The notes: a model not told the origin generated them from the sequence alone. DNA of 64,000 nucleotides from Flavobacteriia bacterium (GCA_947450325.1 CANFUT010000008.1:30211-94210), one strand, 5' to 3'. Shown: positions 10,263 to 46,304, counted from the stretch's first letter. Program-made: numbers and translations.

Positions 10263-10264
10263 AA

Positions 10265-14580: not shown

Positions 14581-14621
14581 TGAGCAAAAGTATAATTATC
14601 TAATTTGTAAATGGAATATGA

Positions 14622-15367: not shown

Positions 15368-15485
15368 ATTATTTTAGTTTAAATTAAACCGAAAAATAGG
15401 ACTTTCAATTTGCATGGGCTGGGTAACTTCCTTTAGGTTGGGTAAATAAAACACTAACCATCCTTGGTAGGTTGATGTGGATTTT

Positions 15486-16718: not shown

Positions 16719-16865
16719 AATTTTTTAAAAAAAATAATTTTAACAGTAATTAAAGGTACTTATAAGCAATTATTAATGTAATGTACATGTAGTTTATTTG
16801 TTGAATAATTCTTTTAGGGAATCCCTAAATTATCCCTAAGATTCATTTGTGCCATAATCTTAAAA

Positions 16866-17144: not shown

Positions 17145-17148
17145 GAAG

Positions 17149-18186: not shown

Positions 18187-18192
18187 TATTAA

Positions 18193-29597: not shown

Positions 29598-30236
29598 ATG
29601 TTCAAATATCTTTTTTCACTAACGGTTTTGTTTTGTTCGCTTTCGGTTACAAGCCAAGATACCTTGTTTTTGAATCCTCCAATGGCGCGAAACTCGGTTT
29701 ATTTGGAAGTTTTTGGACAAGGATTGTACAATTCACTTTCTTACGATCGCATTTTGTTTCCTGAGTTTAGAGTAAAACACAGCGCGACGATCGGATTGAC
29801 TTTTATTCCACCTATCGGTTACATGCAAGTAGTGGCGATTCCAGTTTCATACAATTTTATTTTCGGTCAAAGAAAACATCATTTGGAATTGGGTTTGGGA
29901 TTTACGCCGATGATTTTCAAGGAAATTGGTATTCAGAGTACTTTTTATGAACAGGATAATTTTGGAACTGTAACAAGTGTTACAGAGAAGGTCGACAACG
30001 TAAATTTGTTTTTCTACCTGACACCTAAAATTGGTTACCGTTTTCAAAAACCTGAAGGTGGATTTTTCTTCCGTGCAACACTTACACCACCAGTCGCAGG
30101 AATAAATATTTGGAGGTATAATTCTACAAGTTCCTATTCGCAATCGCCGTACACTGAACTTTTTACCAATGCAGCATTTTTCGGTAGCCGCATTTATCCC
30201 TGGGCTGGTCTCAGTTTTGGGTATACTTTTGACTAA
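29598..30236 (+). CDS. hypothetical secreted/outer-membrane protein
   Basis: Signal peptide 'LTVLFCSLSVTSQ' and a beta-strand-rich, aromatic-rich composition. Confidence 0.55.
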   Translation: MFKYLFSLTVLFCSLSVTSQDTLFLNPPMARNSVYLEVFGQGLYNSLSYDRILFPEFRVKHSATIGLTFIPPIGYMQVVAIPVSYNFIFGQRKHHLELGLGFTPMIFKEIGIQSTFYEQDNFGTVTSVTEKVDNVNLFFYLTPKIGYRFQKPEGGFFFRATLTPPVAGINIWRYNSTSSYSQSPYTELFTNAAFFGSRIYPWAGLSFGYTFD

Positions 30237-31303
30237 AAATCCAAGGTCATTTGCGTGGCAATTTCTTCTGCTTCCTGCTGAAATCCTGAGATTTGAAATC
30301 CGATCAATCTAATCGGTTTTGAAAGTGGCAACACTTGTTCCATCAATAATTTCCCTGTTTCTTCCACTGAATTTTTTGAAATGAAACGATTGTTTTTGGT
30401 TGTCGAACGCGTGATTTGCGTGAAATCGTTGTATTTCAATTTGATGTTCAATGTTTTTCCACTTTGACCAAATTTCTGGTACCTGGTCCAAAGTCGTTCT
30501 AGAATAAGGTTTGCCTGCATTCTAAATTTCGTTGAGTCAAAAATGTCTAACTCAAAGGTGCTTTCCACCGCGATGCTTTTTCTTTCGCGCTCTGATTCCA
30601 CATTTCTGTTGTCGATTCCTCGCGCGATGTTGTAGAAATATTTTCCTGATTTGCCAAAATGATCTATTAAAAATTCAAGGCTGAAATTTCTCAACGTTTT
30701 GCCATTCGTGATTCCCAATTCGTGCATTTTCAAAGCTGTCACTTTGCCGACACCGAAAAAACGCTCTATCGGAAGCGTATTGATGAAATTGATTCCTTCC
30801 TTGGGGCGAATGATGTAAAGTCCATCTGGTTTGTCTTGATCTGAAGCCATTTTCGCCAAAAACTTGTTGTACGAAACGCCAGCCGAAGCAATCAAATTTA
30901 GCTCGTTTTTGATGTCATTTTTGATGGATTGCGCGATGAACGTGGCAGAATTTAAATCAATTTTATTGAAAGTCACATCCAAAAACGCTTCGTCGAGCGA
31001 AAGTGGCTCAATCTCGTCGGTGTAACGAGAGAAAATCTCATGAATGGCGTTTGAAATTTCTTTGTAGCGCTCAAATCGTGGTCTCACAAAAATCAATTGC
31101 GGACATTTTTTCGCCGCAATCTTGGAACTCATCGCCGATTTCACCCCAAATTTCCGCGCTTCATAACTGGCGGCGGCAATCACACCGCGTTCCGCATTTC
31201 CGCCGACGGCAACCGGTTTTCCGCGCAAATCAGGATTATCCAATTGTTCCACGGAAGCAAAAAAAGCGTCCATGTCAATGTGAATAATTTTGCGGAGTTC
31301 CAT
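30233..31303 (-). CDS. dinB: DNA polymerase IV (Y-family)
   Basis: 'IIHIDMDAFFASVEQ' and 'SLDEAFLDVT'; 356 aa. A TACTTTTG -7-like box at 31308-31315 sits just upstream of the ATG. Confidence 0.95.
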   Translation of the reverse strand: MELRKIIHIDMDAFFASVEQLDNPDLRGKPVAVGGNAERGVIAAASYEARKFGVKSAMSSKIAAKKCPQLIFVRPRFERYKEISNAIHEIFSRYTDEIEPLSLDEAFLDVTFNKIDLNSATFIAQSIKNDIKNELNLIASAGVSYNKFLAKMASDQDKPDGLYIIRPKEGINFINTLPIERFFGVGKVTALKMHELGITNGKTLRNFSLEFLIDHFGKSGKYFYNIARGIDNRNVESERERKSIAVESTFELDIFDSTKFRMQANLILERLWTRYQKFGQSGKTLNIKLKYNDFTQITRSTTKNNRFISKNSVEETGKLLMEQVLPLSKPIRLIGFQISGFQQEAEEIATQMTLDF

Positions 31304-31337
31304 GAATCAAAAGTAAGGATTATTGGTGTGATAAAGG

Positions 31338-31437
31338 TTGGGTTTTTTAAAATTGCATGTTGGTTGATTGCAGTGTTTTTCGGGTTGTAAGTGATTCTAA
31401 CAGATAAAATCACTTCGGTGGAAGTTGGATTTTTTTG
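31338..31437 (-). repeat. dinB-upstream repeat module, copy A (with hairpin 31389-31415)
   Basis: It shares TTGCAGTGTTTTT(C/G)CGG(G/T)TGTAAGTGATTCTAAC(A/G)GATAAAATCACTT with copies at 33969-34077 and 36147-36220. The last 8 codons and stop of ORF 31410..32459 lie inside it. Confidence 0.8.
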
Positions 31438-32459
31438 GTAATTCTTTTAAATTCTACTAATCTAATTTTATTACCTTCTTTTATAATCACACCATTTAAA
31501 AATCGACTATTAATTGGAAAGATATTGTTATTATTTTGAATATCTCGCACGGCTCCATACCAAGAAACTTTATTTATAATTGTGTCTAAAACAATTGGTT
31601 TTCTATTATTGAAATACCCCAAGTAAGTATTTTTATTGTCTGAAAAAAAATGGTAAAGTTGATTTTTACTCACAAAAGCTCCAATAATCATAATGTCTAT
31701 TGTATCGACTAATACCTCAAAGCCTTTATCGTATCCTATAGGATGTTTGATTTCATAATTTCTAGGGTCTTTCGAATATATATCATACCAAGCACAGTCT
31801 AAAAGTTGACTTTTCTGCTTTATTTCATAAAGCTTTTTGGGGTCGTTAATTTTGATCACTTTCGAAAAACCAGAACCATGAGGAAGTGAAGATGTTACAT
31901 AATATGAACCTTTTATTTTATTTACAGATTTAATACTTGTTGCTTCACAACTATAGGTTTTTCTGGTTTTTTTATCTTTGAAATAAACAGCTCCTCCAAA
32001 TTCTCCGCGACTACAAGATTTAATAATGAATTGATTGTCTTCATAAATTGGATAATTTAATTGATAACTCTTATAATTTGTTACGTCCTCTTTTGGTAGC
32101 GATTTGTAAAAATTCCATCGATTGTTTCTCCAATATTTAACAGTGTAAGAATCTGTTACAAACAAAGTATCTTCAGATGTCCAAATCGATTTTACGAATT
32201 TGAGATCAGAGTTCAATAAAATAGTTTTTGCCCTTTCTAAGTTAAATGATTTGTCAAATAAACCAATATTAAAAGAAGTATCATCATAATTTTCAAAATT
32301 GCATATATAACCGTTTTCAAATTGAATAATTTCTTTAACTTCGAATGGCAGTATTACCTCTGATTTTTCGATCACAAAATTTTCAGGAATAAATTCTCCT
32401 ACTTTCTCAGAACAAGAAAGAATAGACAAGATTATTAATATTATTATGGTGTATTTCAA
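31410..32459 (-). CDS. hypothetical lipoprotein (cassette 1)
   Basis: 'IIILIILSILSCSEK' lipobox; 349 aa. No catalytic motif recognised. Confidence 0.6.
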   Translation of the reverse strand: MKYTIIILIILSILSCSEKVGEFIPENFVIEKSEVILPFEVKEIIQFENGYICNFENYDDTSFNIGLFDKSFNLERAKTILLNSDLKFVKSIWTSEDTLFVTDSYTVKYWRNNRWNFYKSLPKEDVTNYKSYQLNYPIYEDNQFIIKSCSRGEFGGAVYFKDKKTRKTYSCEATSIKSVNKIKGSYYVTSSLPHGSGFSKVIKINDPKKLYEIKQKSQLLDCAWYDIYSKDPRNYEIKHPIGYDKGFEVLVDTIDIMIIGAFVSKNQLYHFFSDNKNTYLGYFNNRKPIVLDTIINKVSWYGAVRDIQNNNNIFPINSRFLNGVIIKEGNKIRLVEFKRITKKIQLPPK

Positions 32460-32470
32460 TTGCTAAATGT

Positions 32471-32995
32471 TTAATACCCTTTCTTCTGCAATTCTACTGT
32501 ATCAACTACAAATCCTATTGCCAACAAAATTAAGCCAATTAAACTTAGCAAAAACATTGGACCAGCAAAAGGCCAATGCTGAATCCTAAAAATGTAACAG
32601 ATAATTGAAATCAATATTCCAATTAATTGCGGGACATTAGCACGTTCTGATTTGGGCTTTTTCAAATTGATATCCCAAACTTCTATTGCTAACCAAGTGC
32701 TACCTGAAACGGCAAGAATGATTAGGAAAAATACCAAATTATTCATTTTGTACATCGCAAATACACTAAAGAATACCCAAGATAAAACCATAATTACTTT
32801 TGCTAAATCCTTGATGTTTTTTGATTGCTTTAATCCGTATCGTATCGCATATAGCACTCCAATTGCAATGAAGCTGGTTAGCCTGATCTCAAAATTAATT
32901 GACCAATGTTGGATTTTAAACACATAACCAATTGCCAAAATACAAAGTGCAAGAGCTAAAAGAATAAGAATTATTTTATTTTGTTTGCTAACCAT
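32471..32995 (-). CDS. hypothetical polytopic membrane protein (cassette 1)
   Basis: 174 aa with about 5-6 TM helices. It has a repeated 'F(K/R)IQHW' motif reminiscent of GldL-type N-terminal hairpins. Confidence 0.6.
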   Translation of the reverse strand: MVSKQNKIILILLALALCILAIGYVFKIQHWSINFEIRLTSFIAIGVLYAIRYGLKQSKNIKDLAKVIMVLSWVFFSVFAMYKMNNLVFFLIILAVSGSTWLAIEVWDINLKKPKSERANVPQLIGILISIICYIFRIQHWPFAGPMFLLSLIGLILLAIGFVVDTVELQKKGY

Positions 32996-33091
32996 GTACT
33001 ATTATTTAATCGATACTTATGCTGCAAAGCTAATTAAAACATAGTATGTTTTTTTTATACTATTCATCTTTGTTTAATGTAGTGCTTTGAA

Positions 33092-33178
33092 ATTTCCGCG
33101 CAAATCAGGATTGTCCAATTGCTCCACGGAAGCAAAAAAAGGGTCCATGTCCATGTGAATAATCTTGCGAAGTTCTAT
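33092..33178 (-). pseudogene. relic 5' fragment of dinB (~29 codons), start codon mutated
   Basis: TTTCCGCGCAAATCAGGATTGTCCAATTGCTCCACGGAAGCAAAAAAAGGGTCCATGTCCATGTGAATAATCTTGCGAAGTTCTAT matches the intact gene at 31217-31303. The position of the CAT (ATG) reads TAT (ATA). Confidence 0.8.
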
Positions 33179-33262
33179 GAATCAAAATTAAGGATTATTG
33201 GTGTGATTTAGGTTGAGGTTTTTCGCAACTTGAATGCAAGATGATGACAGTTTTTTCTGTGC
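33092..33262 (-). repeat. dinB-upstream repeat module, copy B (includes dead dinB 5' fragment; no hairpin)
   Basis: It aligns by eye to 31217-31385 at roughly 85-90% identity, then diverges into the mazF 3' end. Confidence 0.8.
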
Positions 33263-33277
33263 CTAAATATCAGTCCA

Positions 33278-33640
33278 TCAGTCTAAATCGACAATAATCG
33301 ACAAATTCTCTTTGATTTTCTCAATTAAATCTGTTGGAATTGATCCTATTTTTTTAATTAATCTTTTATTGTCTATCGCTCGAATTTGATCTATCATGAT
33401 ATCGCAGTGCTCCTGTAAATTCGCCATTCCTTTTTTTAGATGTACTCTTAAAATGTCGGAATCACTTTGAACGTTTGTTGTTATTGGACAAACAATAGTT
33501 GAAGGATGTGGAAGCTTATTTAACAAATTAGTTTGCACTACAAGAACTGGTCTTGTTTTTCCAGGTTCTGTTCCAATTTGTGGATTCAAGTCGGCTATCC
33601 AAATATCGTACTGCTCAATCTGCATAGTCCATGTTTTCAA
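33278..33640 (-). CDS. mazF: MazF/PemK-family endoribonuclease toxin (cassette 2)
   Basis: 'IWIADLNPQIGTEPGKTRPVLVVQ' PemK signature. It overlaps the upstream antitoxin gene, and the likely start is MQIEQYD at 33625. Confidence 0.85.
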   Translation of the reverse strand: MKTWTMQIEQYDIWIADLNPQIGTEPGKTRPVLVVQTNLLNKLPHPSTIVCPITTNVQSDSDILRVHLKKGMANLQEHCDIMIDQIRAIDNKRLIKKIGSIPTDLIEKIKENLSIIVDLD

Positions 33641-33845
33641 AGTCCTTTAGAACGTTCATCGAATCTTTTTTGACTAACTCAGATTCAACTTTAAGTCTTT
33701 TTTCTAAAATTTGTCTTTTTTGAACTTTATTATAATAGTCAAGTGCTTCGTTGATATACCTATTCCTTGGCATGCTAATTTTTGATAGAATCTTTTCAGT
33801 TTCTCCAAATATTGAATCATCTATTTTTAAGGATACAGTTTTCAT
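33615..33845 (-). CDS. ribbon-helix-helix antitoxin (cassette 2)
   Basis: 76 aa. 'KTVSLKIDDSIFGETEKI...RNRYINEALDYY' is an RHH/CopG-like N-terminus, located directly upstream of mazF. Confidence 0.7.
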   Translation of the reverse strand: MKTVSLKIDDSIFGETEKILSKISMPRNRYINEALDYYNKVQKRQILEKRLKVESELVKKDSMNVLKDFENMDYAD

Positions 33846-33968
33846 ATACTTTTATTTGATATCATAAAGGTATATCTTTTTTGTATATATTTTTATATTG
33901 AGACGCAATTTTTTTGTGCATGCAGCACAATTCATTTTCTTTTTCCTTACGATGGGACTTGTAGATTG

Positions 33969-34077
33969 CGGTTTTTTTTTTTTTTTCAAATTGCGTGTTG
34001 GACGCTTGCAGTGTTTTTGCGGGTGTAAGTGTTTCTAACGGATAAAATCACTTAGTTGGAAAGTGGATTTTTGGGAT
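33969..34077 (-). repeat. dinB-upstream repeat module, copy C (hairpin 34026-34054; contains T15 tract)
   Basis: It aligns to 31338-31437. T15 at 33972-33986 replaces the T6 of copy A, and the left hairpin arm has a 1-nt deletion. Confidence 0.8.
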
Positions 34078-34149
34078 CTATTTTTTTGTTCACTCAGAAG
34101 ACAAAAGAAATTTAAAGTTCTTTTTACTATAGTTTTAATATATCACCGC

Positions 34150-35277
34150 TTACAATTTTTGTCTGCTAATCAATTTTAATTGTTTGTCAATAGTGTCTAA
34201 CAAACCATTTGAAAATGTATCGCCGTTCAATTTCCAAAACATCAAGCCACCTAATTTTTTGTCAATGGCATATTGCGTTTTTAGCGCTACTGAAGCTTTG
34301 TCATCAAACGTTACAAAGATTTTTTGTTCTAAATTGTATAAATACGGTGCTTTGGCAATACTGTCCCAATAGTAATTAAAACCTTCTTTTTCAGTGTAAT
34401 TTTCAATTAACTGATTATAATTGACATTTGATTTAAATTTACCTGGCTGACCTAAACCATTGTTTAAACTGTCAACATTTTGCACAACAAATGAATAAAA
34501 TGCAGCACCTATTACTATCTTATTCAAGGGCACTCCTAAACTATCCAAATAGTTAACGGATTTATCTATACTTTCGGATTGATAGGGAGAAGAGAATAAT
34601 GCTGTGTGGTGGCCCGTATGACCACTTTTATCGGAAGGTAAACCGTAAGTCATTAAATTCACAAAGTCAACTAAGGGCATTACATTTTTCCAATCAATAG
34701 ATAAATCAATAAATTCTTTAAATGAATTTGCATCGAAACTGATTTCTGATTTTTTTGGCAGGCTTCTCTTCAGTTCTTGTAAAAGTGCTGTAAAATTTTG
34801 TTTGTCGTTTGGAGATGCCTTGTGGTTTTTATATCCACCGATTACAGGACTTTCCCAATCAATATCAATACCGTCTGCATGATATTCTGCTAACATTTCT
34901 TTCACAGAAATTGCAAATTCTTTCCGACCTGCGTCAGTTGAAAAAACATCTGAACAAGTTTCACATCCGCCCCAACCACCTATAGAAACGAGTACTTTTA
35001 AATGCGGATATGTTTTCTTTAATTCAATACAACGTTTTAATGTGTTTTTGCTATCCTCATTTTTGAAGCCAATTTTATTTCCTTGAAGATAAGTAAAACA
35101 GTAAATGAGATGTGTTAATTTTTCATACTCGAACTTCTCAACCTCTTTTATATCCCCGCGATAAAAACCAACAACTCGAAAAGAATTTGTCTTATTTGAG
35201 TGTTTTCGTACCCGTGTTTGAGAATTACAATTAAAAGTAATTATCAACAGCAAAATTAGAACTGATTTAATTTTCAT
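34150..35277 (-). CDS. GH18 chitinase-like glycoside hydrolase, secreted (cassette 3)
   Basis: 'ADGIDIDWE' (DxxDxDxE catalytic motif), with the signal peptide 'SVLILLLIITFNCNSQ'. Confidence 0.85.
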   Translation of the reverse strand: MKIKSVLILLLIITFNCNSQTRVRKHSNKTNSFRVVGFYRGDIKEVEKFEYEKLTHLIYCFTYLQGNKIGFKNEDSKNTLKRCIELKKTYPHLKVLVSIGGWGGCETCSDVFSTDAGRKEFAISVKEMLAEYHADGIDIDWESPVIGGYKNHKASPNDKQNFTALLQELKRSLPKKSEISFDANSFKEFIDLSIDWKNVMPLVDFVNLMTYGLPSDKSGHTGHHTALFSSPYQSESIDKSVNYLDSLGVPLNKIVIGAAFYSFVVQNVDSLNNGLGQPGKFKSNVNYNQLIENYTEKEGFNYYWDSIAKAPYLYNLEQKIFVTFDDKASVALKTQYAIDKKLGGLMFWKLNGDTFSNGLLDTIDKQLKLISRQKL

Positions 35278-35418
35278 TTGTCTATGCGAGTTTCTTTATT
35301 GTATTATCTCGTTGGCTTAGCTGATGTGATTTTTCCATGCACAAAAATGTACTAAAAAAAGCAAACAACTTACCGGAAAATTAGCCTAGAACTATAGCAA
35401 ATGTTAGCAATAGGCTTT

Positions 35419-35982
35419 TTATTGATAGAATTCATCGTCTTCTTTTTGATAACCTTCATAATAATATGATTGTTCAATTCCTTTAAAGATGACTTCTCTG
35501 TTGTCAATTTCGTTCGTTAAGTTTTGACTAAGCAAAGTTCTTAATTCCAAATCGTTGATTGGACTTCTTTCCATTGCTTGTAGGTAAAGTGTTTTATCTA
35601 CAAATTGCCAGTTTACTAATTTTTTTAGTCTGGTTTTTAAAATCATATCGAGCCAAATTCTCATTGTTCTTCCATTTCCTTCCAGAAAAGGATGGGCAAT
35701 ATTCATTTCAGTATATTTCGCAATAATTTCTTCGAAACTACTTTCTGGCATTTGCTCGATTTTTACTAATATTTCGTTTAAGTACAATGCATTTGCAAAT
35801 CGAAAACCGCCTTTTGAAATGTTTAGCGTTCTAACTTTTCCTGCAAAATCATCTAATCGATCAAATAAATAATGATGAATGTTCTGTAAACCTTTTGTTG
35901 TTCCAATTTCGATTTTTTCAATATCATTGGAATCAAACAAACGATAAGCATTTTCTAAACTTTCCTTATCAATATTCTTCAT
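35419..35982 (-). CDS. fic: Fic-domain protein, class III-like (C-terminal autoinhibitory motif) (cassette 3)
   Basis: '[12 protein letters not shown]' = HxFx(D/E)GNGRxxR. The C-terminal 'SYYYEG' fits the (S/T)xxxE(G/N) inhibitory motif. It is 187 aa. Confidence 0.85.
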
Positions 35983-36146
35983 TTAAAATCAGATTTTAAT
36001 TTATCTGTTTATTGTCAAAAATACTTCAAAAGTTTCTCTTTTACGCATAAAGTAACTACTTTTTAGTCAATTATTCTTGGAATAAATCTAGCATTTAATG
36101 CTGACAAAAATTAAAAATGTGCTTTCGTTACATGAATGTTACAATA

Positions 36147-36220
36147 TGGACGCTTGCAGTGTTTTTGCGGTTGTAAGTGATTCTAACGGATAAAATCACT
36201 TAGGTGGAAATTGAATTTTA
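36147..36220 (-). repeat. dinB-upstream repeat module, copy D (hairpin 36174-36202)
   Basis: TGGACGCTTGCAGTGTTTTTGCGGTTGTAAGTGATTCTAACGGATAAAATCACTTAGGTGGAA. It has a 9-bp stem TAAGTGATT/AATCACTTA. Confidence 0.8.
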
Positions 36221-36260
36221 CCTAAGATTCATTGAATCAATTCCTGTTCATATTACTTCT

Positions 36261-36836
36261 CTATTCAAATGTAATCTTCAATACCTGCCCGTCTTTTTCC
36301 TTGCTCGGACTGAAAACACAATAGATGGTTTTTCCTTTTAAAGTTGAGAGAGATGCAATTCCGACTCCTGGCTTAACATAGATACTCTCAACAGTGCGCA
36401 CGCCAATCCAATCGTTTGGATTTTTTACATAAACTTTGTCAAAACGCACGAATTGTTCGTCATCTGCATATGCGTATAAGCAGTGATAACCATCATCAAC
36501 GAATTTACCGACCGCTATATCAAGATTGTAGTTCTTTTCATCTTCGGCAAAAGTTTGGGACGATTCAAAACAAGTTAATCTGTCTTTTTGATTCAATAAT
36601 ACTTGTGTGTAAGCTGTAGAATCAAAGCTACAATTTAGGAAAACAGCGTCCGTATTGACAGTGTGAAAAGTGAAATTAAAAGGCTGTGTCTTCAAAGTTA
36701 TTTCGTGCGTTCCTTCTGGAATTTGGAGACTGTCTGACCCTTGAACGATCGTGAGAAATGTTTGTTTAGTGCTGTCTTGCTGTCCGAAAGAGATTGAAGT
36801 TATAAGTAGACTTAAAAGTAGAATATTAAATTTCAT
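36261..36836 (-). CDS. hypothetical secreted protein (cassette 4)
   Basis: Signal peptide 'NILLLSLLITSISFGQ'; 191 aa. Confidence 0.55.
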   Translation of the reverse strand: MKFNILLLSLLITSISFGQQDSTKQTFLTIVQGSDSLQIPEGTHEITLKTQPFNFTFHTVNTDAVFLNCSFDSTAYTQVLLNQKDRLTCFESSQTFAEDEKNYNLDIAVGKFVDDGYHCLYAYADDEQFVRFDKVYVKNPNDWIGVRTVESIYVKPGVGIASLSTLKGKTIYCVFSPSKEKDGQVLKITFE

Positions 36837-36842
36837 TTGACT

Positions 36843-37430
36843 TTAGTTTTTCACACAACGAACAGCAAAACCACTTACACGATAAAAACCTAATTGAACA
36901 ACCCCTGCTTGATCGGGTTTAAGATTCATTGTCCAAGCAGCTGGATCTAGAGCCACTTCGGAAGTCCACCAAGTTGCACCACGTGGGTTTCGAATTTCTC
37001 CATTTGTTCCTTTTTCTGGCGCTGGAATTGCTGAAAATCCACTTGAATTATCCGCGCCTGTATTTGGTGCTTTCCATTTTTCAAGTGATTTCATTTTATT
37101 TCCCGCGCTTTCGACACCTCCTAAATATGTAATTAATTCGTTCCATTCTGCAACAGTTGGAATGTGCCAACCTGCTGGACATGCTTCAAAAGCAGATTCG
37201 TAGGTGTACATTCTTCCATATGTTTCACATTCATGACACCAACTTTTTTCAACTTCATAATTTAAGTTCTCAGCAAACCACCATTGATTACCAATTTTAA
37301 CTGTAATGTATTCTTGTTTATCTCGTGGATCGACAAATGTGTCGAATTTGGGTGTCGAACTTTGATCCCCCGTAAATGAGAAAAGGAAAGTTAAAATGAG
37401 TGTTACTACCGATATTTTGAAAATTTTCAT
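36843..37430 (-). CDS. FISUMP-domain protein (Fibrobacter succinogenes major paralogous domain) (cassette 4)
   Basis: 'WWFAENLNY', 'GRMYTY' and 'CPAGWHIPTVAEWNELI' are hallmarks of the TIGR02145-type domain. Confidence 0.7.
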   Translation of the reverse strand: MKIFKISVVTLILTFLFSFTGDQSSTPKFDTFVDPRDKQEYITVKIGNQWWFAENLNYEVEKSWCHECETYGRMYTYESAFEACPAGWHIPTVAEWNELITYLGGVESAGNKMKSLEKWKAPNTGADNSSGFSAIPAPEKGTNGEIRNPRGATWWTSEVALDPAAWTMNLKPDQAGVVQLGFYRVSGFAVRCVKN

Positions 37431-37488
37431 TTTAAATAAAATTCTTAAAATTAAAGTTTGCTAGGCTGACGCTAAAATGCAACCAACC

Positions 37489-37851
37489 TCAAATCGTCTG
37501 CAAAATCTGCCCCAATCGAATCAACTCATTTTTCACTTGATTCATTCCAATAAGACCACCTGACATTCCTGAGCTTTCTTGTCTCACAGCCAATTTTATT
37601 TCATCAGAATCACTGGAGCCACCAGTAACAATCGTGAATTTGAAATATTTTACAAACGCACCAAAAAGGATGCGCATTACTCTGTTTCCCTTTGTATACA
37701 CCGCATGACCAATTTGTCCTTCTTTCATAGTATAGCCAGAGGACACTAGTAATTGATCTATTTTTTTATCCAATTCATCTTTTGAAATTCCTGAATAAAC
37801 GTGAACAAAATTTGATTTAGTAGTGACATCGTTTTTAATAAAATAACCCAT
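37489..37851 (-). CDS. hypothetical protein (cassette 4)
   Basis: 120-aa ORF on the same strand as its neighbours. No motif recognised. Confidence 0.45.
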   Translation of the reverse strand: MGYFIKNDVTTKSNFVHVYSGISKDELDKKIDQLLVSSGYTMKEGQIGHAVYTKGNRVMRILFGAFVKYFKFTIVTGGSSDSDEIKLAVRQESSGMSGGLIGMNQVKNELIRLGQILQTI

Positions 37852-38235: not shown

Positions 38236-38622
38236 TTAAAGATAAGCTTGATTCCGCAATTTAATCTGCAAAAACCATTCATAATTAAAATTCCTTGTTC
38301 TATCGAAAATGGTGAAGCTATCCAGTACGAAACCAATGAAAAACTGACCGAAAGTGAGCATCTTGACAACGCCTAAACCAACTTCACCCAAAACAAAGCG
38401 ATCAACGCCAAAAATACCCAGTGGAAACGCCGTCCAAAATAGGGTGGAAGGGTTCTTGAAAGGAATGAGTTGAAATGTATCAAAATCTGCTTCATTCAAG
38501 CCAAGCATGTAATCTTTTACAGCATCCCAAGCAACGCTAGGAAAATAGTTTTCATGGAAAATGAAATATGCCTGGACATCATTTTTTCTTTTTTGTGTTG
38601 GTGGATTTTCGCTTGTATTCAT
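38236..38622 (-). CDS. TM2-domain membrane protein
   Basis: 'AFPLGIFGVDRFVLGEVGLGVVKMLT' is a TM2-type double-helix motif. Confidence 0.65.
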   Translation of the reverse strand: MNTSENPPTQKRKNDVQAYFIFHENYFPSVAWDAVKDYMLGLNEADFDTFQLIPFKNPSTLFWTAFPLGIFGVDRFVLGEVGLGVVKMLTFGQFFIGFVLDSFTIFDRTRNFNYEWFLQIKLRNQAYL

Positions 38623-38757
38623 TTTTTAGGTGATTGTCAAATTCCTTTTAAACGTTGCTCAAATATGCAATTTTCACAGGGAAAGAACAACTTTATTTTT
38701 CATAGCTGATGCACAACGCTTTGCAAATAAGTTGCTTATTTATTGTAATATATATTT

Positions 38758-39543
38758 TTATTCTTTTTTAAATTTAATAATCACGTTAGACAAAGTTACT
38801 TTTTGATCCTTATTAAATACATTTAATATCTCAATCAATTCAAGGTCAAAATGCTTTCCTTTTGAGTTTGGATGAAGCGTTTTTTTAGGCCATCTCATTG
38901 AAAATAAAGTCTCCCAATTATCTTGACCGTTTTTTATTTCCATTTTTAGCGTATTTGACGTTAAGAAGTATCTACCCGAATGATTGATTCCATTGATTGA
39001 CACACTTAAACTATCATTATTAAAGAAACTAATTTTGGTACTATATGCACTAAATACAGAATCTAAGATTTGATCATCTTTGTCAAACGGAATCATTTTT
39101 TCCTTTATCCAAGTTCCAATAAGCAAAGATTTTAGTTGTTTAAGATTACCATCCTCACATTGACATTTTCCAAAGGGAACGGGATCTATAGGTTTTATTT
39201 TACCGATTGATGACTTAATGAAATTACCATTTTTATCGTATTTTTCTTTAACTACTTTTGAAGGTTGCAAAAGTAACGTCCATGTATTCACATCATCTAA
39301 AAAACCTTTTTCCTTCAATTCCCCATTTCTATAATACTTTTCGTAAGGACCATACAAAAAACCATGCACATAAGTTTTGTATAATTTTGGTTTTCCATTG
39401 GAATAGTATTTGAAGACTTTTCCGTGAAGACATGTGTTAGAGTCAATAGAATTCGGAATAACATCTTGACCAAAGGATTGTCCCATGCTAAAAACTAGTA
39501 TCAATATTGTAACGTAGCTCTTCATTTGCAGATTATAATGCAT
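38758..39543 (-). CDS. secreted protein with YwqK/MORN-variant repeats
   Basis: 'KVFKYYSNGKPKLYKTYVHGFLYGPYEKYYRNGELKEKGF' (YwqK-antitoxin-like repeats). The signal peptide suggests a start at MKSYVTIL (39525). Confidence 0.55.
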   Translation of the reverse strand: MHYNLQMKSYVTILILVFSMGQSFGQDVIPNSIDSNTCLHGKVFKYYSNGKPKLYKTYVHGFLYGPYEKYYRNGELKEKGFLDDVNTWTLLLQPSKVVKEKYDKNGNFIKSSIGKIKPIDPVPFGKCQCEDGNLKQLKSLLIGTWIKEKMIPFDKDDQILDSVFSAYSTKISFFNNDSLSVSINGINHSGRYFLTSNTLKMEIKNGQDNWETLFSMRWPKKTLHPNSKGKHFDLELIEILNVFNKDQKVTLSNVIIKFKKE

Positions 39544-39552
39544 ATTCCTTTA

Positions 39553-40134
39553 TCATTTAATTTTGAAAGTTTTTAGCGATTGAAGCATAATTGACATATT
39601 TTTCTTTAAATCTTCAGTTTGAGACGCTTCTGCTGTAAGGAAGTAAAAAAATCCTTGTTCATCACTGTTCAAAATGAAACTAATTATTTCCGTTTCACCG
39701 TAATTTCCAGTATTTGATTTAGTATGAATGAAATAGGCAGGATAACTTAATACATCTGTTTTTCCCGATTCTACCATTTTTAATCCCTTAGATTGATTTT
39801 TTGATAATTTTAATAAGTAATTATATTCAGTTTGTAAGTTGTTTGAATTACTTTGGCTTTTGATTTTTTGAATAGAAATCACATCAAAATGACCACCTTT
39901 ATCGGCTGGTGAAATTGCATTTGCCATGATAATCATGTTCTTTCCATCACAATCTTCATCTTCACTTTTCCAATTCCACCAAATAGGAATCATAAGAGAG
40001 AAACTATTGGAATCCAATACCACTTTTTGCTTTTCAAATTCAACAGTAGTATCAATGAATTGATTTAAAGTAATGTCTTCCTGAGCACAAGAACTAAGTG
40101 CAAATAGAAAAAGAAATATAGAGAAATAGTTCAT
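39553..40134 (-). CDS. hypothetical lipoprotein
   Basis: 'IFLFLFALSSCAQ' lipobox; 193 aa. Confidence 0.55.
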   Translation of the reverse strand: MNYFSIFLFLFALSSCAQEDITLNQFIDTTVEFEKQKVVLDSNSFSLMIPIWWNWKSEDEDCDGKNMIIMANAISPADKGGHFDVISIQKIKSQSNSNNLQTEYNYLLKLSKNQSKGLKMVESGKTDVLSYPAYFIHTKSNTGNYGETEIISFILNSDEQGFFYFLTAEASQTEDLKKNMSIMLQSLKTFKIK

Positions 40135-40164
40135 AAGTAGTTTAACGTTTTTGATTACGACATT

Positions 40165-40337
40165 CCGCCGCCTTAATGTTAAGTTGTAAATATATTGAAT
40201 TATCCTTTTAGTAAATTCTGACTTAGAAAAATAAAACCAGCTATTGAGTGAAATCAGCTGTTATGTATCTTAAAAATTTGTCTCATAAAGTGACGCTGTC
40301 GCCCACCACAATCAATGGCATTTTAGTGCCGGTCATA
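40165..40337 (-). repeat. decayed duplicate of the helicase 3' end plus its downstream sequence
   Basis: Block 40182-40212 matches 41061-41091 (AGTTGTAAATATA..GAATTATCCTTTTAGT). Block 40287-40335 matches 41213-41262 (AAAGTGAC.CTGTCGCCCACCACAATCAAT.GC.TTTT.G.GC.GGTCAT), which is helicase coding sequence. Confidence 0.75.
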
Positions 40338-41007
40338 CAAATTTCGATTCTCTTGTTAATTTACTTTTGTCTAAGTTCAAGTCATTACAGAACCAGTCAG
40401 TCAATACTTTTTCAATCTCACTTCTGTTAAATGACTTTGGGTTTCGTCTTGATTTTAGATAATTTTCTCTTGTCATTTTTTCGGCAACTTGTCCAACGCT
40501 TTGCAAGTCAAGTTTGTTTCCGATTTTATTTACTAACCAAAGTCCAGCGATTGAAAAACCAAGTCCTAAAAGTCCGATTTGCCAATTAAAGTAAAGTCCA
40601 ATTAAAGATGCGATAAAAATAGTTGCCAGTGTTCCTGTAACCCAATGAGGCGGGCGCAAAATGTTAAGTTTAAAACCTAAATGTTTTTCTAATTTCTTAG
40701 TTCTTGAACGTCTGCTTTGTCGTGGTAAAAGGTCAACAAGAATGGAATCAGGCGAAATTGTTTTACTGTCAATTTGAAGTGTTGTTGATATTGCATCACG
40801 AAGTTTGTAAAATGCTTGTTGGCTTGTGCAATCGTCTGAATTGTCAAGCTGGATTTTGTTTGCAATGTGGTCGCAAAGTTGTCCAAAGGTCGTAATTTGC
40901 AATAACTCATCACCAACAAACTTGATGTCAAATGAATCCTCAACTTTTTCAAGTAAGTCTTCAAGGTCTTCAAAGTCGATATCTTTAAGTTCGTATTCTG
41001 CTGTCAT
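40333..41007 (-). CDS. hypothetical membrane protein with ACP-like N-terminal domain lacking the phosphopantetheine Ser
   Basis: 'DFEDLEDLLEKVEDSFDIKFVGDELLQITTFGQLCDHI' resembles ACP helices II-IV without a DSL serine. Two TM helices follow: 'TLATIFIASLIGLYF' and 'LLGLGFSIAGLWLV'. Confidence 0.5.
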   Translation of the reverse strand: MTAEYELKDIDFEDLEDLLEKVEDSFDIKFVGDELLQITTFGQLCDHIANKIQLDNSDDCTSQQAFYKLRDAISTTLQIDSKTISPDSILVDLLPRQSRRSRTKKLEKHLGFKLNILRPPHWVTGTLATIFIASLIGLYFNWQIGLLGLGFSIAGLWLVNKIGNKLDLQSVGQVAEKMTRENYLKSRRNPKSFNRSEIEKVLTDWFCNDLNLDKSKLTRESKFV

Positions 41008-41127
41008 AGTATTTCTTGTAACTTGCCGCAGATTTACGCAATAGCGGCAACTTCGTAGTTAGTTGTAAATATATAGAATTATCCTTTTAGTGCTTTCCGG
41101 CTGAGAAAATTAAAACCATTTCCAAAC

Positions 41128-43011
41128 CTACCCCATAAACTCCCAAGCACTCCCATAACTCCCCACACTTTCACTGTGCAACAAAAACGCTCCAAAAAAC
41201 GGATCGTTGCCAAAAGTGACACTGTCGCCCACCACAATCAATTGCGTTTTGGCGCGGGTCATGGCGACGTTCATTCGGCGGTAATCTTTCAGGAATCCCA
41301 AATTGCATTCGTCGTTGGAGCGTACGAGGGAAATGAAGACAATTTCGCATTCTTGTCCTTGAAAGCTGTCCACGGTGGAGATGCGCAGGTTTTTGGGGAA
41401 ACGTTCTTTTGCGAGCGCCACTTGACCAGAGTAGGGCGTAATCAAGGCGCAATGGTCGAGGTTGAATTGGTTTTGCTCCATGATTTTTTCGATGATTTCC
41501 AGTTCGCCCACGTTCGATAAACTGCCACTTTCAGACGCTTGTTCCTCTTGAAAACCAGTTCCTGCGGTGTCGAAATATTGAAAATGAATGCCTGTGTTTT
41601 GCAGAAACGGCGGTGTTTCCAATTTTCCTTCGTAGAAATAATTATTCGGAAAATCTACAATCGCTTGTCGCATGCGGTATTGCGTTCGGAGCAGGTATTT
41701 TTGCGGATGTTTTTCGAGCATCACTTCCAAAAAGGATTTGTTGTAGCCGTTTTTCATCGCTTGCTCTGAAATCACAGTCGGCGGCAATTGCAAATGATCT
41801 CCAGCCAACACCAAACGTTGCACATTTTTGATCGCCACCCAAGCCAAACTTTCCAAACATTGTCCTGCTTCGTCAATCAACAAGGTGTTGAATTCCATTT
41901 TTTGCAGCGATTTGTCGTTCAAACCAACAGGTGTTCCGCAGATTACTTTGGTTTCAGAAATCCATTTTTCAGCATAAAAATCTTGCAAGGCGCGAATTTC
42001 TTTGCGGATGTTTTTCACTTCTTGAATCAACAATTTGCGCTGATCGCGGTCGTCTTTGCCAAAATGACGTTTGTATTGGTGCGACATTTTGCGGTATTCT
42101 TCCGCTTGGATGCGCATTTTTTTGATTTGCTTTTGCTCGTTTCCAAGCGCCATTTTCCCTTCCAAGGTATAAGGCAAAAGTTCAGGCGACATTTTGGTTT
42201 GATTGCCAATTCTCAGTGTCGAAATACCTTGTTTGATGAGTTGCAAAGCGATGTGATCTGTGGCAGCATTGCTCGGCGCGCAAACCAATACTTTTTCGCC
42301 ATTTTTGACCAATTCCGCAATCGACGCCACCAAAGTCGTTGTTTTTCCAGTTCCCGGAGGACCGTGAACAATCACAATCGGTTCATTTCCATTGATTTTC
42401 GAAAGCGCTTCTTGCTGACTTTCATTCAGTTTTTCGTTGATTTCAACGGCATGTTTTTTAGGTTCGGGCAAAAAATCGGCGTTATTTTGGTGCACATACG
42501 TGAAAAATGGAAATGCATCAGCAGATTTTCCGTTGTCCAAAGATTGCAAAACGGCAGTGATGATTTCCTGCGTTTTGGTGTCGGGCGTCAATTTGATTCC
42601 TACACCGTGGTCTTCGATCCAATCTGGAAAATCGGGCGCAAAAATGCGTGCTTCGCCATTGCCACCGTTGATTCCGAGTAAAATTCCCTTGATGGAAGTT
42701 TCATTTTCAAAAAACAATTCGATGGCAGTTCCGTCTCTGAAATTGTCGGTTTGTTGACTTTGCGGAATCTTGAACGAAAATTCGGGATATTCCGCAAAAC
42801 CGTAAGATTTTCGTGTGATTTTAATCGGATGCAAGGCCAATCCATCTCTTTTCAAACTTTTGATTCCGCCAGCATCTTTGACAGAAAATCGTTCAACTTG
42901 TGCTTTTTCTTCAAGTATTAAATTGTCAAGTAAAAACTGAATGTGCGGATCTTTGGCTTGCATGGAATGAATTTGACGCAAATTTCGTAGAATTTTCGGA
43001 AGCTTTGCCAA
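41128..43011 (-). CDS. SF1 helicase, Upf1/DNA2-like (AAA_11/AAA_12 type)
   Basis: 'VHGPPGTGKTTT', 'LLIDEAGQ', 'GDHLQLPPT', 'TVDSFQGQECEIVFISLVRSN' and 'NVAMTRAK'. Confidence 0.85.
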   Translation of the reverse strand: MAKLPKILRNLRQIHSMQAKDPHIQFLLDNLILEEKAQVERFSVKDAGGIKSLKRDGLALHPIKITRKSYGFAEYPEFSFKIPQSQQTDNFRDGTAIELFFENETSIKGILLGINGGNGEARIFAPDFPDWIEDHGVGIKLTPDTKTQEIITAVLQSLDNGKSADAFPFFTYVHQNNADFLPEPKKHAVEINEKLNESQQEALSKINGNEPIVIVHGPPGTGKTTTLVASIAELVKNGEKVLVCAPSNAATDHIALQLIKQGISTLRIGNQTKMSPELLPYTLEGKMALGNEQKQIKKMRIQAEEYRKMSHQYKRHFGKDDRDQRKLLIQEVKNIRKEIRALQDFYAEKWISETKVICGTPVGLNDKSLQKMEFNTLLIDEAGQCLESLAWVAIKNVQRLVLAGDHLQLPPTVISEQAMKNGYNKSFLEVMLEKHPQKYLLRTQYRMRQAIVDFPNNYFYEGKLETPPFLQNTGIHFQYFDTAGTGFQEEQASESGSLSNVGELEIIEKIMEQNQFNLDHCALITPYSGQVALAKERFPKNLRISTVDSFQGQECEIVFISLVRSNDECNLGFLKDYRRMNVAMTRAKTQLIVVGDSVTFGNDPFFGAFLLHSESVGSYGSAWEFMG

Positions 43012-43096: not shown

Positions 43097-45110
43097 TTGA
43101 ACAATCAAGAAAAAGAAAAACAATCGCTTCACGCAATATTTCGAAAATTAGCGCAAGACAGTGAAGATGAAGAATTGCGGTTCTTGATTGATTTGGTGAA
43201 TTACTTCCGACCGAAAGGAAAAAGTCAGAATCAGTATTTTTCAATTCGAGCATTGATCGATTTTTTGAATGAAAATCCAACATTCATTGATCCTTTTCGG
43301 GCTTATTTGTACGAAGTTTTTGAAGGAAAAACGTTCAGAAATCTGCTTTCAGACGCAGGAATTTTGCAAAACACGCACTTTTTTCAAGAAATCAAGAAAA
43401 GGTCGATTGCCAAGATTTTACCGTTTCAACCAGATAGAAATACGCTTGAATTTGTATTGAATCAAATTTTTTATTCGCGGAAAGATTACGATTGGTTGTC
43501 TAAGATTCCGACAGATGAAATGCTCGCACTGTATGAATTGTTGCAGTTGGGTTCGATGTACGACCGCAAAACGGAGCAATCGATGCTCAATGAGTTGCTG
43601 CAATCGATGCGATTGATCATGCAACGAATGAGCGGCAGGGCCTTGGAAACGGATGTCATCAAAATGATTCCAGAATATGAAAATTACGACAGTCCTTTTG
43701 AAGTCTTGGAGAAAGAATTTGATTTGATTGAAGCCACGTTGATTTCCGATGAAACGTATTTTTTGAATTCCGAGGATATTGATTACAAGCAGATTAATAT
43801 CATTTTGGTTCAATGCGAAGATTTTGTCAATCAAGCATATAAAAACAGTTCGCGCTTCGGAATTTCATTGAATGTGAATCAAAGTTTATTGAGAATTAGA
43901 CAACAGATTAAAAGACTGAAATCCATTTTTCCGTATTTGGTACTTGATTTAGAAGAAGATAAAAAGCTCAAAAGCGTTTCTTTTTTCCTGTGTTTGGTGA
44001 AATACAATTGCATGAAAAACAACGTGCGCAAATTGATCAATGAAAGCACGCAGTTGATTGCCTACGAAATCACGCAACACACGGCAAAAACGGGTGAACA
44101 TTACATCACCAAAGGAAGCAATGAATATTTCAACATGTTGTCCAGCGCGATTGGCGGCGGCGTGATTGTGGGAATTTTGTGCGTGATAAAATTGTTGCTT
44201 TCTAAGGTGGAAACGAGCGATTTTGGTCATGCGATTTTGTACAGTTTAAATTATGCGATTGGATTTACAGCGATTTATTTGTTGGGTTACACCTTGGCAA
44301 CAAAACAACCAGCAATGACGGCAGCGGCCTTGATTCAGTCCATTGAAAAAGACCAATTCAATACCAAAGACCAAAAATATAAATCCTTCGCGAATTTATT
44401 TGCAAGGCTTTTTCGTTCGCAGTTTATTGCGTTTGTCGGCAATGTGATTTTCGCTTTTCCGGTGGCACTTTTGATTATTTATGGCGTTGATTACGCTTTT
44501 GGATTGTCGATTCCCGATGAAAAATGGGATCATTTGTTGACTGATTTAAGTCCGATTCATTCCGCGGCGATTTTCCATGCGGCGATTGCAGGATTGTTCT
44601 TGTTCCTGTCGGGAATTATTTCTGGAAGTGTTTCCAATTCAAACAAGCACAACAAATTGTATTTCAGAATTCAAGAAAATCCGACCTTGAAAATGAGTTT
44701 TGGAAAACGAAAAACGGCGCAAATTGCCCAATGGTTTGAACGACGATGGGCGGGAGTTTCTTCCAACATTTGGTTTGGCTTTTTTCATGGGAACAACCGC
44801 TTCCATCGGCATCTTTTTGGGACTGAATTTAGACATTCGCCACATCACTTTTGCCAGCGGAAATCTCGCTTTGGGATTGTACGGAAATGGTTTTCAAATT
44901 TCAAATTCCATGCTTTTTTGGGGCATTTTTGGCATTGGAATTATCGGCTTTGTCAATTTTATCGTCAGCTTTTTACTGTCGCTTTTCCTCGCTTTTCGTT
45001 CGCGAAATATCCCAACAAGCGACTTGAGATTTTTATTCAAAGCCGTTTGGAATCATTTCAAAGCGCATCCGATGTTGTTTTTCTTTCCGGTCAGATCCAA
45101 AAGAAATTGA
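43097..45110 (+). CDS. large polytopic membrane protein (resembles the 'putative site-specific recombinase transmembrane protein' family; tentative), apparently frameshifted
   Basis: Frame 1 is plausible up to about 44785 and then turns into His/Arg/Phe-rich nonsense. The ORF 44700..45110 in another frame continues with a TM-like sequence. Removing one T from T6 (44780-44785) joins ...NIWFGFF to MGTTASIGIFLGLNLDIRHITF.... Confidence 0.6.
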
Positions 45111-46304
45111 TTATGAAACCAAATTAGATTCTCTGTCAAATCGTTTGTAAGAAAACAAAATCGCAAGCAAAGCCAAACTGGTCATGACGCCAAAACTTAA
45201 AAGCAACAATCCTATATCAAGTGTTCCTGCAATCAATTCTTTGGTTGCCAAAACGACATTTACGACTGGAATACAAGCTGTAATTGCATTCAATTCAATT
45301 CCTGGGAAAAATCCGACCATCGCAGGTAAAATCATCACCATATTCAACGGCGTGATAATACTTTGCGCTTCTTTGAAACTTTTCGCGTAAACGGTAATTG
45401 GAATCATGACACCTGCGAAAAATACGATCAATGGAATCAGTAGCAAGTACATCAACAAGATAAATTTTACGGTCAAAATTTGATGGATAATCTCCAACAA
45501 TTTTGGATCCTTAACAATTTGAAAAACTTCGATGGAGAGAAAAATTCCCAATAGAGTGAAAGTTGCCGCCATGACACCTGATAGCACCACAACGCCCATT
45601 TTTCCTAGTAAAATTTGCAATCTTGAAACGGGAGTTGTCAGCAAAGTTTCCAATGTTCCGCGTTCTTTTTCACCTGTAAAAAGGTCAATCGCAGGATACA
45701 TGCAACCGATAAATCCAAAAACGATGAACAAGTAAGGCAAAAATCCACCGATTAATTTTCCGACTGTTTCTTTGTCTGAAGCGACATTTCTGTAGTCAAA
45801 AGCAATCGGAGACAAGGAAGCAGGATCTACTTTCAACGCAACATATCGTTTTGCCTTTTCCATTTCCTCAAAAGCGTTTAAAAATGTTTCGGCGCGCTCT
45901 TTCATGCCGAGTTCGGTTGCGTTGAAGAAAACTTTGAATTTGGAAGTTTTATTTTCAATGGAATTTTTGGCAAAATCTTCAGGCACAAAAACGCCAAACT
46001 GCAGTCTGTTTTCTTGCACGTGTTTTTGAACAGTTGCTGAATCGTGGTAAACAAAAACCTTTTTCTTACCGAGTATTTTCGGCATGTTTTCGATGGTTTT
46101 TACAAAATTCATGTTTTCTGGCGTCACGACAATTCCGATATTCACCGTTTTGTTGGCAACATCTTTGGCGAATCCTTCTGAGACTTTCAAAAATACCGTC
46201 ATAATCACAGGAAAGATAAAAATAGGAATGACAATCATGGTCATCAATGTTCTTCTATCTCTCAGTGTATCTTTGAGTTCTTTCTTAAAAATAGTTGAAA
46301 TCAT
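45111..46304 (-). CDS. ABC-2 type transporter permease (NatB-like)
   Basis: 397 aa with an N-terminal TM, a large extracytoplasmic loop and 5 C-terminal TMs. It overlaps the ATPase gene stop by 4 nt. Confidence 0.8.
   Translation of the reverse strand: MISTIFKKELKDTLRDRRTLMTMIVIPIFIFPVIMTVFLKVSEGFAKDVANKTVNIGIVVTPENMNFVKTIENMPKILGKKKVFVYHDSATVQKHVQENRLQFGVFVPEDFAKNSIENKTSKFKVFFNATELGMKERAETFLNAFEEMEKAKRYVALKVDPASLSPIAFDYRNVASDKETVGKLIGGFLPYLFIVFGFIGCMYPAIDLFTGEKERGTLETLLTTPVSRLQILLGKMGVVVLSGVMAATFTLLGIFLSIEVFQIVKDPKLLEIIHQILTVKFILLMYLLLIPLIVFFAGVMIPITVYAKSFKEAQSIITPLNMVMILPAMVGFFPGIELNAITACIPVVNVVLATKELIAGTLDIGLLLLSFGVMTSLALLAILFSYKRFDRESNLVS

Follow-up and report, generated by a model that had tools for sequence, protein, structure and literature searches.

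Accessory genes are known to build up beside conserved bacterial genes in several ways, with or without a dedicated recombinase. In hotspots fed by homology, through Campbell-type integration or homology-facilitated illegitimate recombination (HFIR), variable genes lie between two conserved anchors, and integration that is homologous at one end and illegitimate at the other has been documented in other bacteria (PMC3240628), as have partial duplications generated by transformation (PMC3784515). The recombinase-associated orphan-immunity arrays of Bacteroidales, rAID-1, carry a conserved XerD-family recombinase at the head of an array of up to 31 immunity-like genes (10.1101/471110), and certain elements use a recombinase of the host without having a recombinase gene of their own (PMC3091885). 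Here we describe the stretch between dinB and a conserved 120-aa gene in a 64-kb window of the genome of a Flavobacteriia bacterium (GCA_947450325.1, CANFUT010000008.1:30211-94210), in which four groups of accessory genes alternate with copies of the sequence upstream of dinB. On balance, we favour the interpretation that this stretch is an accessory-gene hotspot of a narrow freshwater clade of Crocinitomicaceae (Flavobacteriales) that has probably grown through a series of additive insertions, each held by homology at its dinB end and either of Campbell type or by HFIR, the scars of which would then have served as portable homology. As such, the locus looks like a recombinase-free hotspot of horizontal transfer with scars of these kinds and not like a new integron-like machine.

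In what follows, the window (W) is the whole 64-kb stretch of DNA that was analysed, a block is a co-oriented group of accessory genes, U is the repeat unit and H the palindrome within it, and the repeats are read on the minus strand, the coding strand of all genes between dinB and position 37851. The repeat search and alignment gave a 92-nt family of three copies (31343-31434, 33981-34072 and 36129-36220; 78-85% identical) and a 131-nt pair (31218-31348 and 33093-33223; 91% identical), and a 30-nt core pattern occurs three times in the window versus not at all in 100 shuffles. The four copies, A to D, that the first-pass annotation had described are indeed present on the minus strand at essentially its coordinates; formal alignment, which it had proposed as a check, finds them significantly similar and arranged in the nested series that it had reported, with copy B reaching into the coding sequence of dinB.

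Copies A, C and D have U in common, a unit of ~70 nt around a near-invariant H, which consists of ~19-22 nt (AAAAATCCAACTTCCACCT), the 29-nt near-perfect palindrome H (TAAGTGATTTTATCCGTTAGAATCACTTA) and a further ~22 nt (ACAACCGCAAAAACACTGCAAG). One reading of the palindrome is that of two inverted 11-nt arms (TAAGTGATTTT / AGAATCACTTA) flanking an asymmetric 7-nt centre, ATCCGTT. Copy A runs on the coding strand from ~31438 down to the dinB ATG and is the only copy in which U is followed by both a middle and a promoter-proximal segment, while its first ~95 nt are present in copy C and its first ~80 nt in copy D. The promoter-proximal segment contains a TAnnTTTG-like box, TACTTTTG (31308-31315), 4 nt ahead of the dinB ATG, which we take to be a -7 box of the Bacteroidota type and whose position would imply a leaderless or near-leaderless dinB mRNA. 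Copy B begins farther downstream than the other three and runs on into dinB: it comprises dinB -80 to +86 fused to nt 154-156, with the ATG changed to ATA, an internal 67-nt deletion between two GCGCGGAAA repeats, and the -7-like box surviving as TAATTTTG (33183-33190). The earlier description of the repeats needs two corrections: copy B lacks the palindromic core, and this core is more than dinB-upstream sequence, as H is also found at four unrelated loci in related genomes. Since no Rfam family reached its gathering score in the window, with nothing overlapping the repeats at E <= 10, and no tRNA or tmRNA was found there, a known RNA family or a tRNA-derived attachment site is unsupported as an explanation of the repeats.

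The evidence that these repeats are sites of block exchange comes from ~20 related Crocinitomicaceae loci, which were collected by exact look-ups of the DinB and 120-aa proteins and from tiles that carry H. All of them share a common frame, namely helicase, (TM2 gene), 120-aa gene, variable blocks, U, dinB, tRNA methyltransferase and lpx genes, with one to four co-oriented blocks per locus, the contents of which vary and recur in new combinations. In L100, L107 and L114 there is a single small gene between the 120-aa gene and dinB. The other arrays read 199aa - U (with the promoter-like part) - Fic-GH18 - U in EUL_059, 180aa - U - Fic-GH18 - U in L102, 180aa - U - dinB fragment - GH18 - U in L006, 98aa - U - mazEF - dinB fragment - YhcG nuclease - U in OZ260085.1, 189aa - BNR protein - U - dinB fragment - YhcG - U in L109, and 180aa - U - dinB fragment - 174aa, with more to follow, in L112; W itself, [FISUMP-191aa] - D - [Fic-GH18] - C - [mazEF] - B - [174aa-349aa] - A, is the longest array among these loci. 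U was never found between the 120-aa gene and the first block in the related loci, where that first slot holds a 98-, 152-, 154-, 180-, 189-, 199- or 204-aa gene. Block 1 recurs with an identical junction in L112, there behind another upstream block, block 2 and copy B are kept together as a module in OZ260085.1 (93% identity), and block 3 lies immediately upstream of dinB in EUL_059 and L102. W and EUL_059 share 98.9% identity in the GH18 block (window 33982-35298 against L016 1-1317) but 92.2% in the adjoining dinB/methyltransferase region, a mosaic of identities which indicates that this block was swapped recently between lineages. The comparison of dinB loci across relatives that the first-pass annotation had suggested thus came out in its favour, with whole blocks present, absent and re-assorted at the repeats; in place of one invariant gene order with no further copies of the repeat, both variation and further copies were found. 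A scan of metagenomes with DinB returned only relatives of <= 65% identity, none with U, H or the 120-aa/TM2/helicase neighbours.

The junctions themselves are informative, as the old copies have a constant upstream edge and differing downstream ends, after which the sequence is unrelated and without a common motif. Copy D ends 28 nt past H (before Fic), copy C 62 nt past H (before mazEF), and the EUL_059 copy orthologous to D ~95 nt past H. Where a fragment of dinB is present, it ends at dinB nt ~156 in W and L112 (before the 174-aa block), at nt 167 in L006 (before GH18) and at nt 199 in OZ260085.1, L103 and L109 (before YhcG). One and the same 67-nt deletion between the GCGCGGAAA repeats (dinB nt 78-86 and 145-153) is common to the fragments of W, L112, L006, OZ260085.1, L103 and L109, so that all of these descend from a single ancestral duplication of the dinB 5' end and were later truncated or recombined. 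In addition, the copies are mosaic: two right-flank segments are seen in all four combinations (L113, L104, L102, L006), and two left-hand variants of the dinB fragment each occur with the nt-156 and the nt-199 junction (again all four combinations). At least one crossover lies 18-28 nt outside H, and the block that follows the H-less copy B differs among W, OZ260085.1, L112 and L103. Recombination is, hence, not confined to H.

The model that we favour on balance begins with DNA from a relative, which would arrive as a new block joined to the dinB upstream region and the start of dinB, and which would recombine homologously within dinB or its upstream region. Its far end would be joined illegitimately or, by an equivalent route, a circularised fragment would integrate through a single Campbell-type crossover, and the resident dinB-upstream copy would stay behind, upstream of the new block. 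As this old copy would no longer be constrained on its dinB side, it could be trimmed from there, giving rise to the nested series D < C < B with the most decayed copy farthest from dinB. The copies would then act as homology by which blocks are re-assorted between strains through ordinary homologous recombination. Homology-anchored additive integration is marked by a duplicated segment of homology that is constant on its homologous side and has junctions at arbitrary points on the other, and this is the pattern found here; how the DNA enters and how its one end is joined illegitimately are steps that we infer.

Among the described systems, homology-fed hotspots come closest, as they share with this locus the variable accessory genes between two conserved anchors, the absence of a recombinase and the mosaic identity, as well as a single homologous side per event, an arbitrary junction at the other and a duplicated homologous segment. 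They differ in that here the region upstream of the anchor recurs as truncated copies in an ordered series, left by successive events and all but one with a strictly conserved 29-nt palindrome, and that the upstream edges of the copies are unusually sharp. Tandem accretion of integrative elements at a single attachment site, as in arrays of cis-mobilisable elements, is similar in that tandem modules without recombination genes of their own are bounded by direct repeats copied from the region of the target gene, which is also the case here. However, no integrase-bearing parent element was present at the dinB site in the ~20 genomes, which is a small sample, the repeat extents vary from module to module with no single att core, and the site lies 5' of the gene.

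The palindrome requires separate consideration. The search for further copies that the first-pass annotation had called for, an exact-pattern scan of one genome per species, detected H in 16 tiles from six Crocinitomicaceae metagenome-assembled genomes, and H or U was found in relatives at dinB as well as at four other kinds of locus that are unrelated to each other. In four genomes H overlaps the stop codon of a D-Ala-D-Ala carboxypeptidase gene (dacB), upstream of an arginine decarboxylase gene (speA); in three genomes it lies upstream of a tonB-like gene, where the whole ~70-nt U is present with edges similar to those of the dinB U; and in reverse orientation it occurs twice upstream of a pseudouridine synthase gene and also upstream of an M48 peptidase gene. 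H has a mean minor-allele fraction of 0.018 over 33 distinct copies, compared with 0.29-0.36 for its flanks, a contrast partly favoured by ascertainment, although the arrays obtained by protein look-ups were not chosen on H. As RNA, H would form a 12-bp hairpin with a 5-nt loop (-11.2 kcal/mol, z = -7.75). An RNA role is nevertheless not favoured, given that the stem shows no compensatory pairs in 20 distinct copies, in which each change breaks a pair, that the common variant GAAACACTT mismatches the stem, and that H is reversed relative to the genes at two loci. We therefore regard H as a clade-restricted element under sequence constraint, and a DNA-level protein-binding site appears more likely than an RNA hairpin.

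Two further observations were made at these loci. In L009 (3184-3446, minus strand) the two H copies, one of which carries a stem-breaking change (AAGTGTTTT), are direct repeats ~180 nt apart with only non-coding sequence between them, and the pair sits between a DUF4159 gene and the pseudouridine synthase gene, reversed relative to both. Just upstream of the U at the tonB locus there is a G+C-rich long inverted repeat (CCCGATAGC...GGGACGGGACGGGAATA.AGCGGATAGCGGGAAATAGCTCC; L014 2990-3070, L017 3690-3770, and L008), which looks like a separate repeat family.

Several of these features weigh against serial insertion by homology. No fewer than eight upstream blocks that are unrelated to each other meet U at nearly one position, 19-22 nt ahead of H, and edges as sharp as these are not expected from independent illegitimate joins, unless selection or deletion trims to functional edges. 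The start of the first slot, 2-8 nt past the stop codon of the 120-aa gene, is equally sharp. H is much better conserved than its flanks and has the 11-7-11 layout of a tyrosine-recombinase core site, and the presence of U with similar edges at the tonB-like locus means that it behaves like a discrete element. In addition, integration of this kind would presuppose microhomology at the illegitimate joins and a way for DNA to enter these bacteria, be it natural competence, conjugation or another route.

The alternative to which these points lend weight is unlikely in our estimate, namely that a tyrosine, Xer-like or other recombinase whose gene lies elsewhere uses H as its core site, cutting blocks out as circles and putting them back at any H in the manner of integrons, rAID-1 arrays or Xer-dependent elements. 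It would account for a near-invariant H between variable flanks, for the arrangement of all H copies within an array as direct repeats, for a left flank of H that tracks the upstream block and a right flank that tracks the downstream block, for the sharp upstream edge of U in many contexts, and for the 3-5 copies of H per genome, which are intergenic and face either way; moreover, elements that rely on a host recombinase carry none themselves (PMC3091885). However, no integrase or resolvase gene is present in any of the ~20 arrays or in the other H-bearing tiles, Phage_integrase had no match among the array ORFs or the conserved flanks of W, and tblastn with the integrase and resolvase that the window does encode gave nothing in the related loci. 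These two genes lie ~25-26 kb away within an unrelated integrated element; the first-pass description of an array without a recombinase and with none adjacent is borne out in W and in its ~20 relatives. Furthermore, the downstream ends of the old copies range from +28 nt past H to dinB nt 199 (+28, +62, ~+95, dinB nt 156, 167 and 199), a spread that a fixed crossover point cannot yield, and site-specific exchange would shuffle flanks and not duplicate the dinB promoter and coding start. The exchange of blocks at the H-less copy B and the crossover outside H speak against it as well, and the H loci at dacB-speA and the tonB-like gene have no inserted blocks in 3-4 genomes each.

Comparison with the recombinase-based families leads in the same direction. 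With integrons and clusters of attC sites lacking integrases (CALIN) the locus shares small co-oriented units that each have a structured repeat on their 3' side, a cargo of toxin-antitoxin and further accessory genes, and strain-variable content, but it has no IntI (which is not required for CALIN), at most four blocks per array, and copies that are 85-95% identical in sequence, whereas attC sites are conserved in structure only. By inspection, the attC geometry (R''(RYYYAAC)-L''...L'-R'(GTTRRRY)) is absent from H, which is a single 12-bp stem with a 5-nt loop and in which the GTTAGAA at the centre and right arm has no complementary RYYYAAC partner. Like rAID-1, the locus belongs to the Bacteroidetes phylum and consists of arrays of small co-oriented genes with repetitive intergenic sequences; unlike rAID-1, it has no XerD-family recombinase, and its repeats stem from the upstream region of a housekeeping gene. 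In its cargo of MazEF, NmFic, GH18, FISUMP and unannotated lipoprotein-like ORFs, Pfam, NCBIfam and PADLOC recognised no immunity family. As for integrative mobile elements exploiting Xer (IMEX), dif is a 28-bp chromosomal site of 11-6-11 layout with a conserved XerD arm, whereas H is 11-7-11 without similarity to the canonical dif arms and occurs at several loci per genome. Bacteroidetes dif sites can be predicted with proteobacterial profiles (PMC3025954), and H was accordingly rejected as a dif or terminus site; the GC skew of the window varies with gene strand and is uninformative as to the position of a terminus. Membership of integrons, rAID or dif/IMEX is not supported, and the likeness to attC and rAID arrays that the first-pass annotation had drawn does not extend to membership, given the lack of a recombinase, of attC geometry and of a fixed boundary. 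Of its two readings, the first, that the repeats are insertion scars at a dinB hotspot, is supported in its Campbell-type, homology-dependent form, on account of block re-assortment at the repeats and the shared 67-nt deletion with differing ends; the site-specific, integron- or rAID-like form is not supported, in view of the missing recombinase, the variable and motif-less junctions, the crossovers outside H and the exchange at copy B. A wider version, in which H or U is the attachment site of a recombinase encoded elsewhere that captures and reshuffles blocks beside dinB, an integron-like platform in Flavobacteriales without a linked integrase whose imprecise events left the dinB fragments as by-products, we consider rather improbable; H is nevertheless worth a search for a protein that binds it, as the locus would be a new kind of gene-capture system if H did prove to be a recombination site.

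Alternatively, U or H could be a small mobile or copied element resembling repetitive extragenic palindromic sequences (REPs) or miniature inverted-repeat transposable elements (MITEs), which spread to the 3' side of several genes, so that the repeats of the array would reflect repeated arrival and not the insertion of blocks. This seems very unlikely, even though the 29-nt H stands alone at unrelated loci, supplies the stop codon of dacB and, in copy A, that of the 349-aa ORF of block 1, is accompanied by a ~70-nt U with the same edges upstream of the tonB-like gene, and is present as a closely spaced pair in L009. In keeping with such a spread, H was not found upstream of arginine decarboxylase in other genera of the family, nor in a sister lineage that retains the dacB-speA synteny, where the locus is too diverged to define an insertion with target duplication. 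Like REPs, H is a palindrome of ~29 nt, intergenic just after genes, in either orientation and specific to a lineage, and REPs are known as join points for duplications; there are, however, only 2-5 exact copies of H per genome (three on the complete 3.9-Mb chromosome OZ260085.1) compared with hundreds of REPs. The array copies do not stop at U but continue, to nested extents, into sequence specific to dinB (the middle segment, the promoter and the coding start), and the EUL_059 copy orthologous to D retains the middle and promoter-like parts, from which it follows that the array repeats are copies of the dinB upstream region and not independent 70-nt insertions. Terminal inverted repeats and target-site duplications are absent, plasmid, phage and viral collections contained no match to H or U, and a literature search for the H sequence gave none.

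The second reading of the first-pass annotation, that the repeat is a portable promoter or operator kept because it puts each block under dinB-like, for example damage-inducible, control, is the least probable and highly doubtful: copy B and its equivalents in L006, L109 and EUL_059 do retain a TAnnTTTG-like box beside the former dinB start that could drive the downstream block, and at each of the loci H sits 80-190 nt upstream of the start of a gene, but copies C and D lack the promoter-proximal part, H is centred ~95 nt upstream of the dinB start and thus outside the presumed promoter, the remaining genes linked to H (arginine decarboxylase, tonB-like, pseudouridine synthase, M48 peptidase) do not make up a damage regulon, and the dinB coding fragment is left unexplained. 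An SOS box was considered and rejected on the same regulon argument and because the published Bacteroidetes motifs, GGA-N5-TCC as well as CTAA-N5-TTAG (PMC8565304), are absent. Scans with sigma-70 and terminator consensuses, which are ill-suited to Bacteroidota, gave matches no commoner than in shuffled sequence.

The layout of the hotspot and of other parts of the window is given in Table 1, with protein families assigned by Pfam and NCBIfam.

Table 1. Features of the dinB hotspot and of further regions in the 64-kb window (positions counted from its first nucleotide).
Feature	Coordinates	Strand	Content
dinB, right-hand anchor	30233..31303	-	Y-family DNA polymerase IV; Pfam IMS, IMS_C, IMS_HHH
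Copy A	31304..31438	-	Complete dinB upstream region: U (H 31388-31416), middle segment, promoter-proximal segment
Block 1	31410..33089	-	174-aa membrane protein 32471-32995; 349-aa lipoprotein-like ORF 31410-32459; leader 32996-33089
Copy B	33090..33262	-	dinB promoter and 5' pseudogene fragment; H-less
Block 2	33278..33981	-	mazE-like 33615-33845; mazF (PemK/MazF) 33278-33640; leader 33846-33981
Cys-rich ORF in mazEF leader	33855..33938	-	MNCAACTKKLRLNIKIYTKKIYLYDIK
Copy C	33982..34077	-	U (H 34026-34054) and middle segment; ends ~62 nt past H
Block 3	34150..36146	-	NmFic-type Fic 35419-35982; GH18 glycosidase 34150-35277; leader 35983-36146
Copy D	36147..36228	-	Minimal U (H 36174-36202); ends 28 nt past H
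Block 4, first slot	36261..37485	-	FISUMP protein 36843-37430; 191-aa lipoprotein-like ORF 36261-36836
120-aa gene, conserved left-hand anchor	37489..37851	-	No Pfam domain; between-genome similarity ends 2-8 nt past stop codon
TM2 gene	38236..38622		Conserved
Second variable zone	38623..41127		224-, 193- (PsbP_2) and 261-aa genes; no U repeats
Helicase gene	41128..43011		Conserved
676-aa ORF	43097..45127	+	PF10136 'SpecificRecomb', E = 1.4e-138
Methylmalonyl-CoA mutase gene	30..3425
Integrated mobile element	3589..19116		No H copy, no tRNA
Tyrosine integrase	3589..4818	+	In mobile element
Serine resolvase	5997..6743	-	In mobile element
Histidine kinase/LytTR pair	10857..14580		In mobile element
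AAA_25 protein	17149..18186		In mobile element
DUF6371/Zn-ribbon protein	18193..19116		In mobile element
GT87/GH20 genes	from 19285		Conserved

All nine ORFs between dinB and 37.9 kb lie on the minus strand, as had been noted, and the earlier family calls (PemK/MazF, GH18, NmFic-type Fic, FISUMP, DinB) are likewise upheld by Pfam and NCBIfam. Block 4 had been counted as three proteins; the FISUMP protein and the 191-aa ORF are cargo, but the 120-aa ORF is a conserved flank, and the variable array thus stops near 37485, ~2-8 nt past the stop codon of this gene. Together with the conserved TM2-domain gene, the 120-aa gene forms the head of the array, and on the other side dinB is syntenic with lpxD, lpxC-fabZ and lpxA genes in all relatives. 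The short Cys-rich ORF in the mazEF leader, which is kept with the leader in OZ260085.1 and L111, may be a leader peptide or a chance ORF.

Beyond the array, the integrated mobile element has the methylmalonyl-CoA mutase gene on one side and the conserved GT87/GH20 genes on the other, and in relatives GT87 adjoins other sequence. The 676-aa ORF matches a poorly characterised family of membrane proteins whose name denotes a site-specific recombinase. W, L100, L101 and L109 all have this ORF as a conserved neighbour, and its C-terminal 114 residues align to relatives in another frame; in L114 and L115, where the U-dinB array persists, it is missing from the interval between the ABC transporter and helicase genes. 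The second variable zone lies between the helicase and TM2 genes: the same-species contig L001 is without the 193- and 261-aa genes, and among the relatives compared (L100-L103, L109, L114), L102 has a type I restriction-modification system, L103 HEPN_AbiV and FRG proteins, and L100 a DUF723 protein.

If the dinB hotspot did indeed grow by homology-anchored serial insertion, it would constitute an unusually legible record of how accessory genes build up beside a core gene without a dedicated recombinase, in which toxin-antitoxin, Fic, nuclease and glycosidase genes were added block by block and the events are dated by increasingly decayed scars. Given that these scars would double as portable homology for exchange between strains, the locus would offer, in uncultured Bacteroidota of fresh water, a natural setting in which one-ended homologous integration could be tested.

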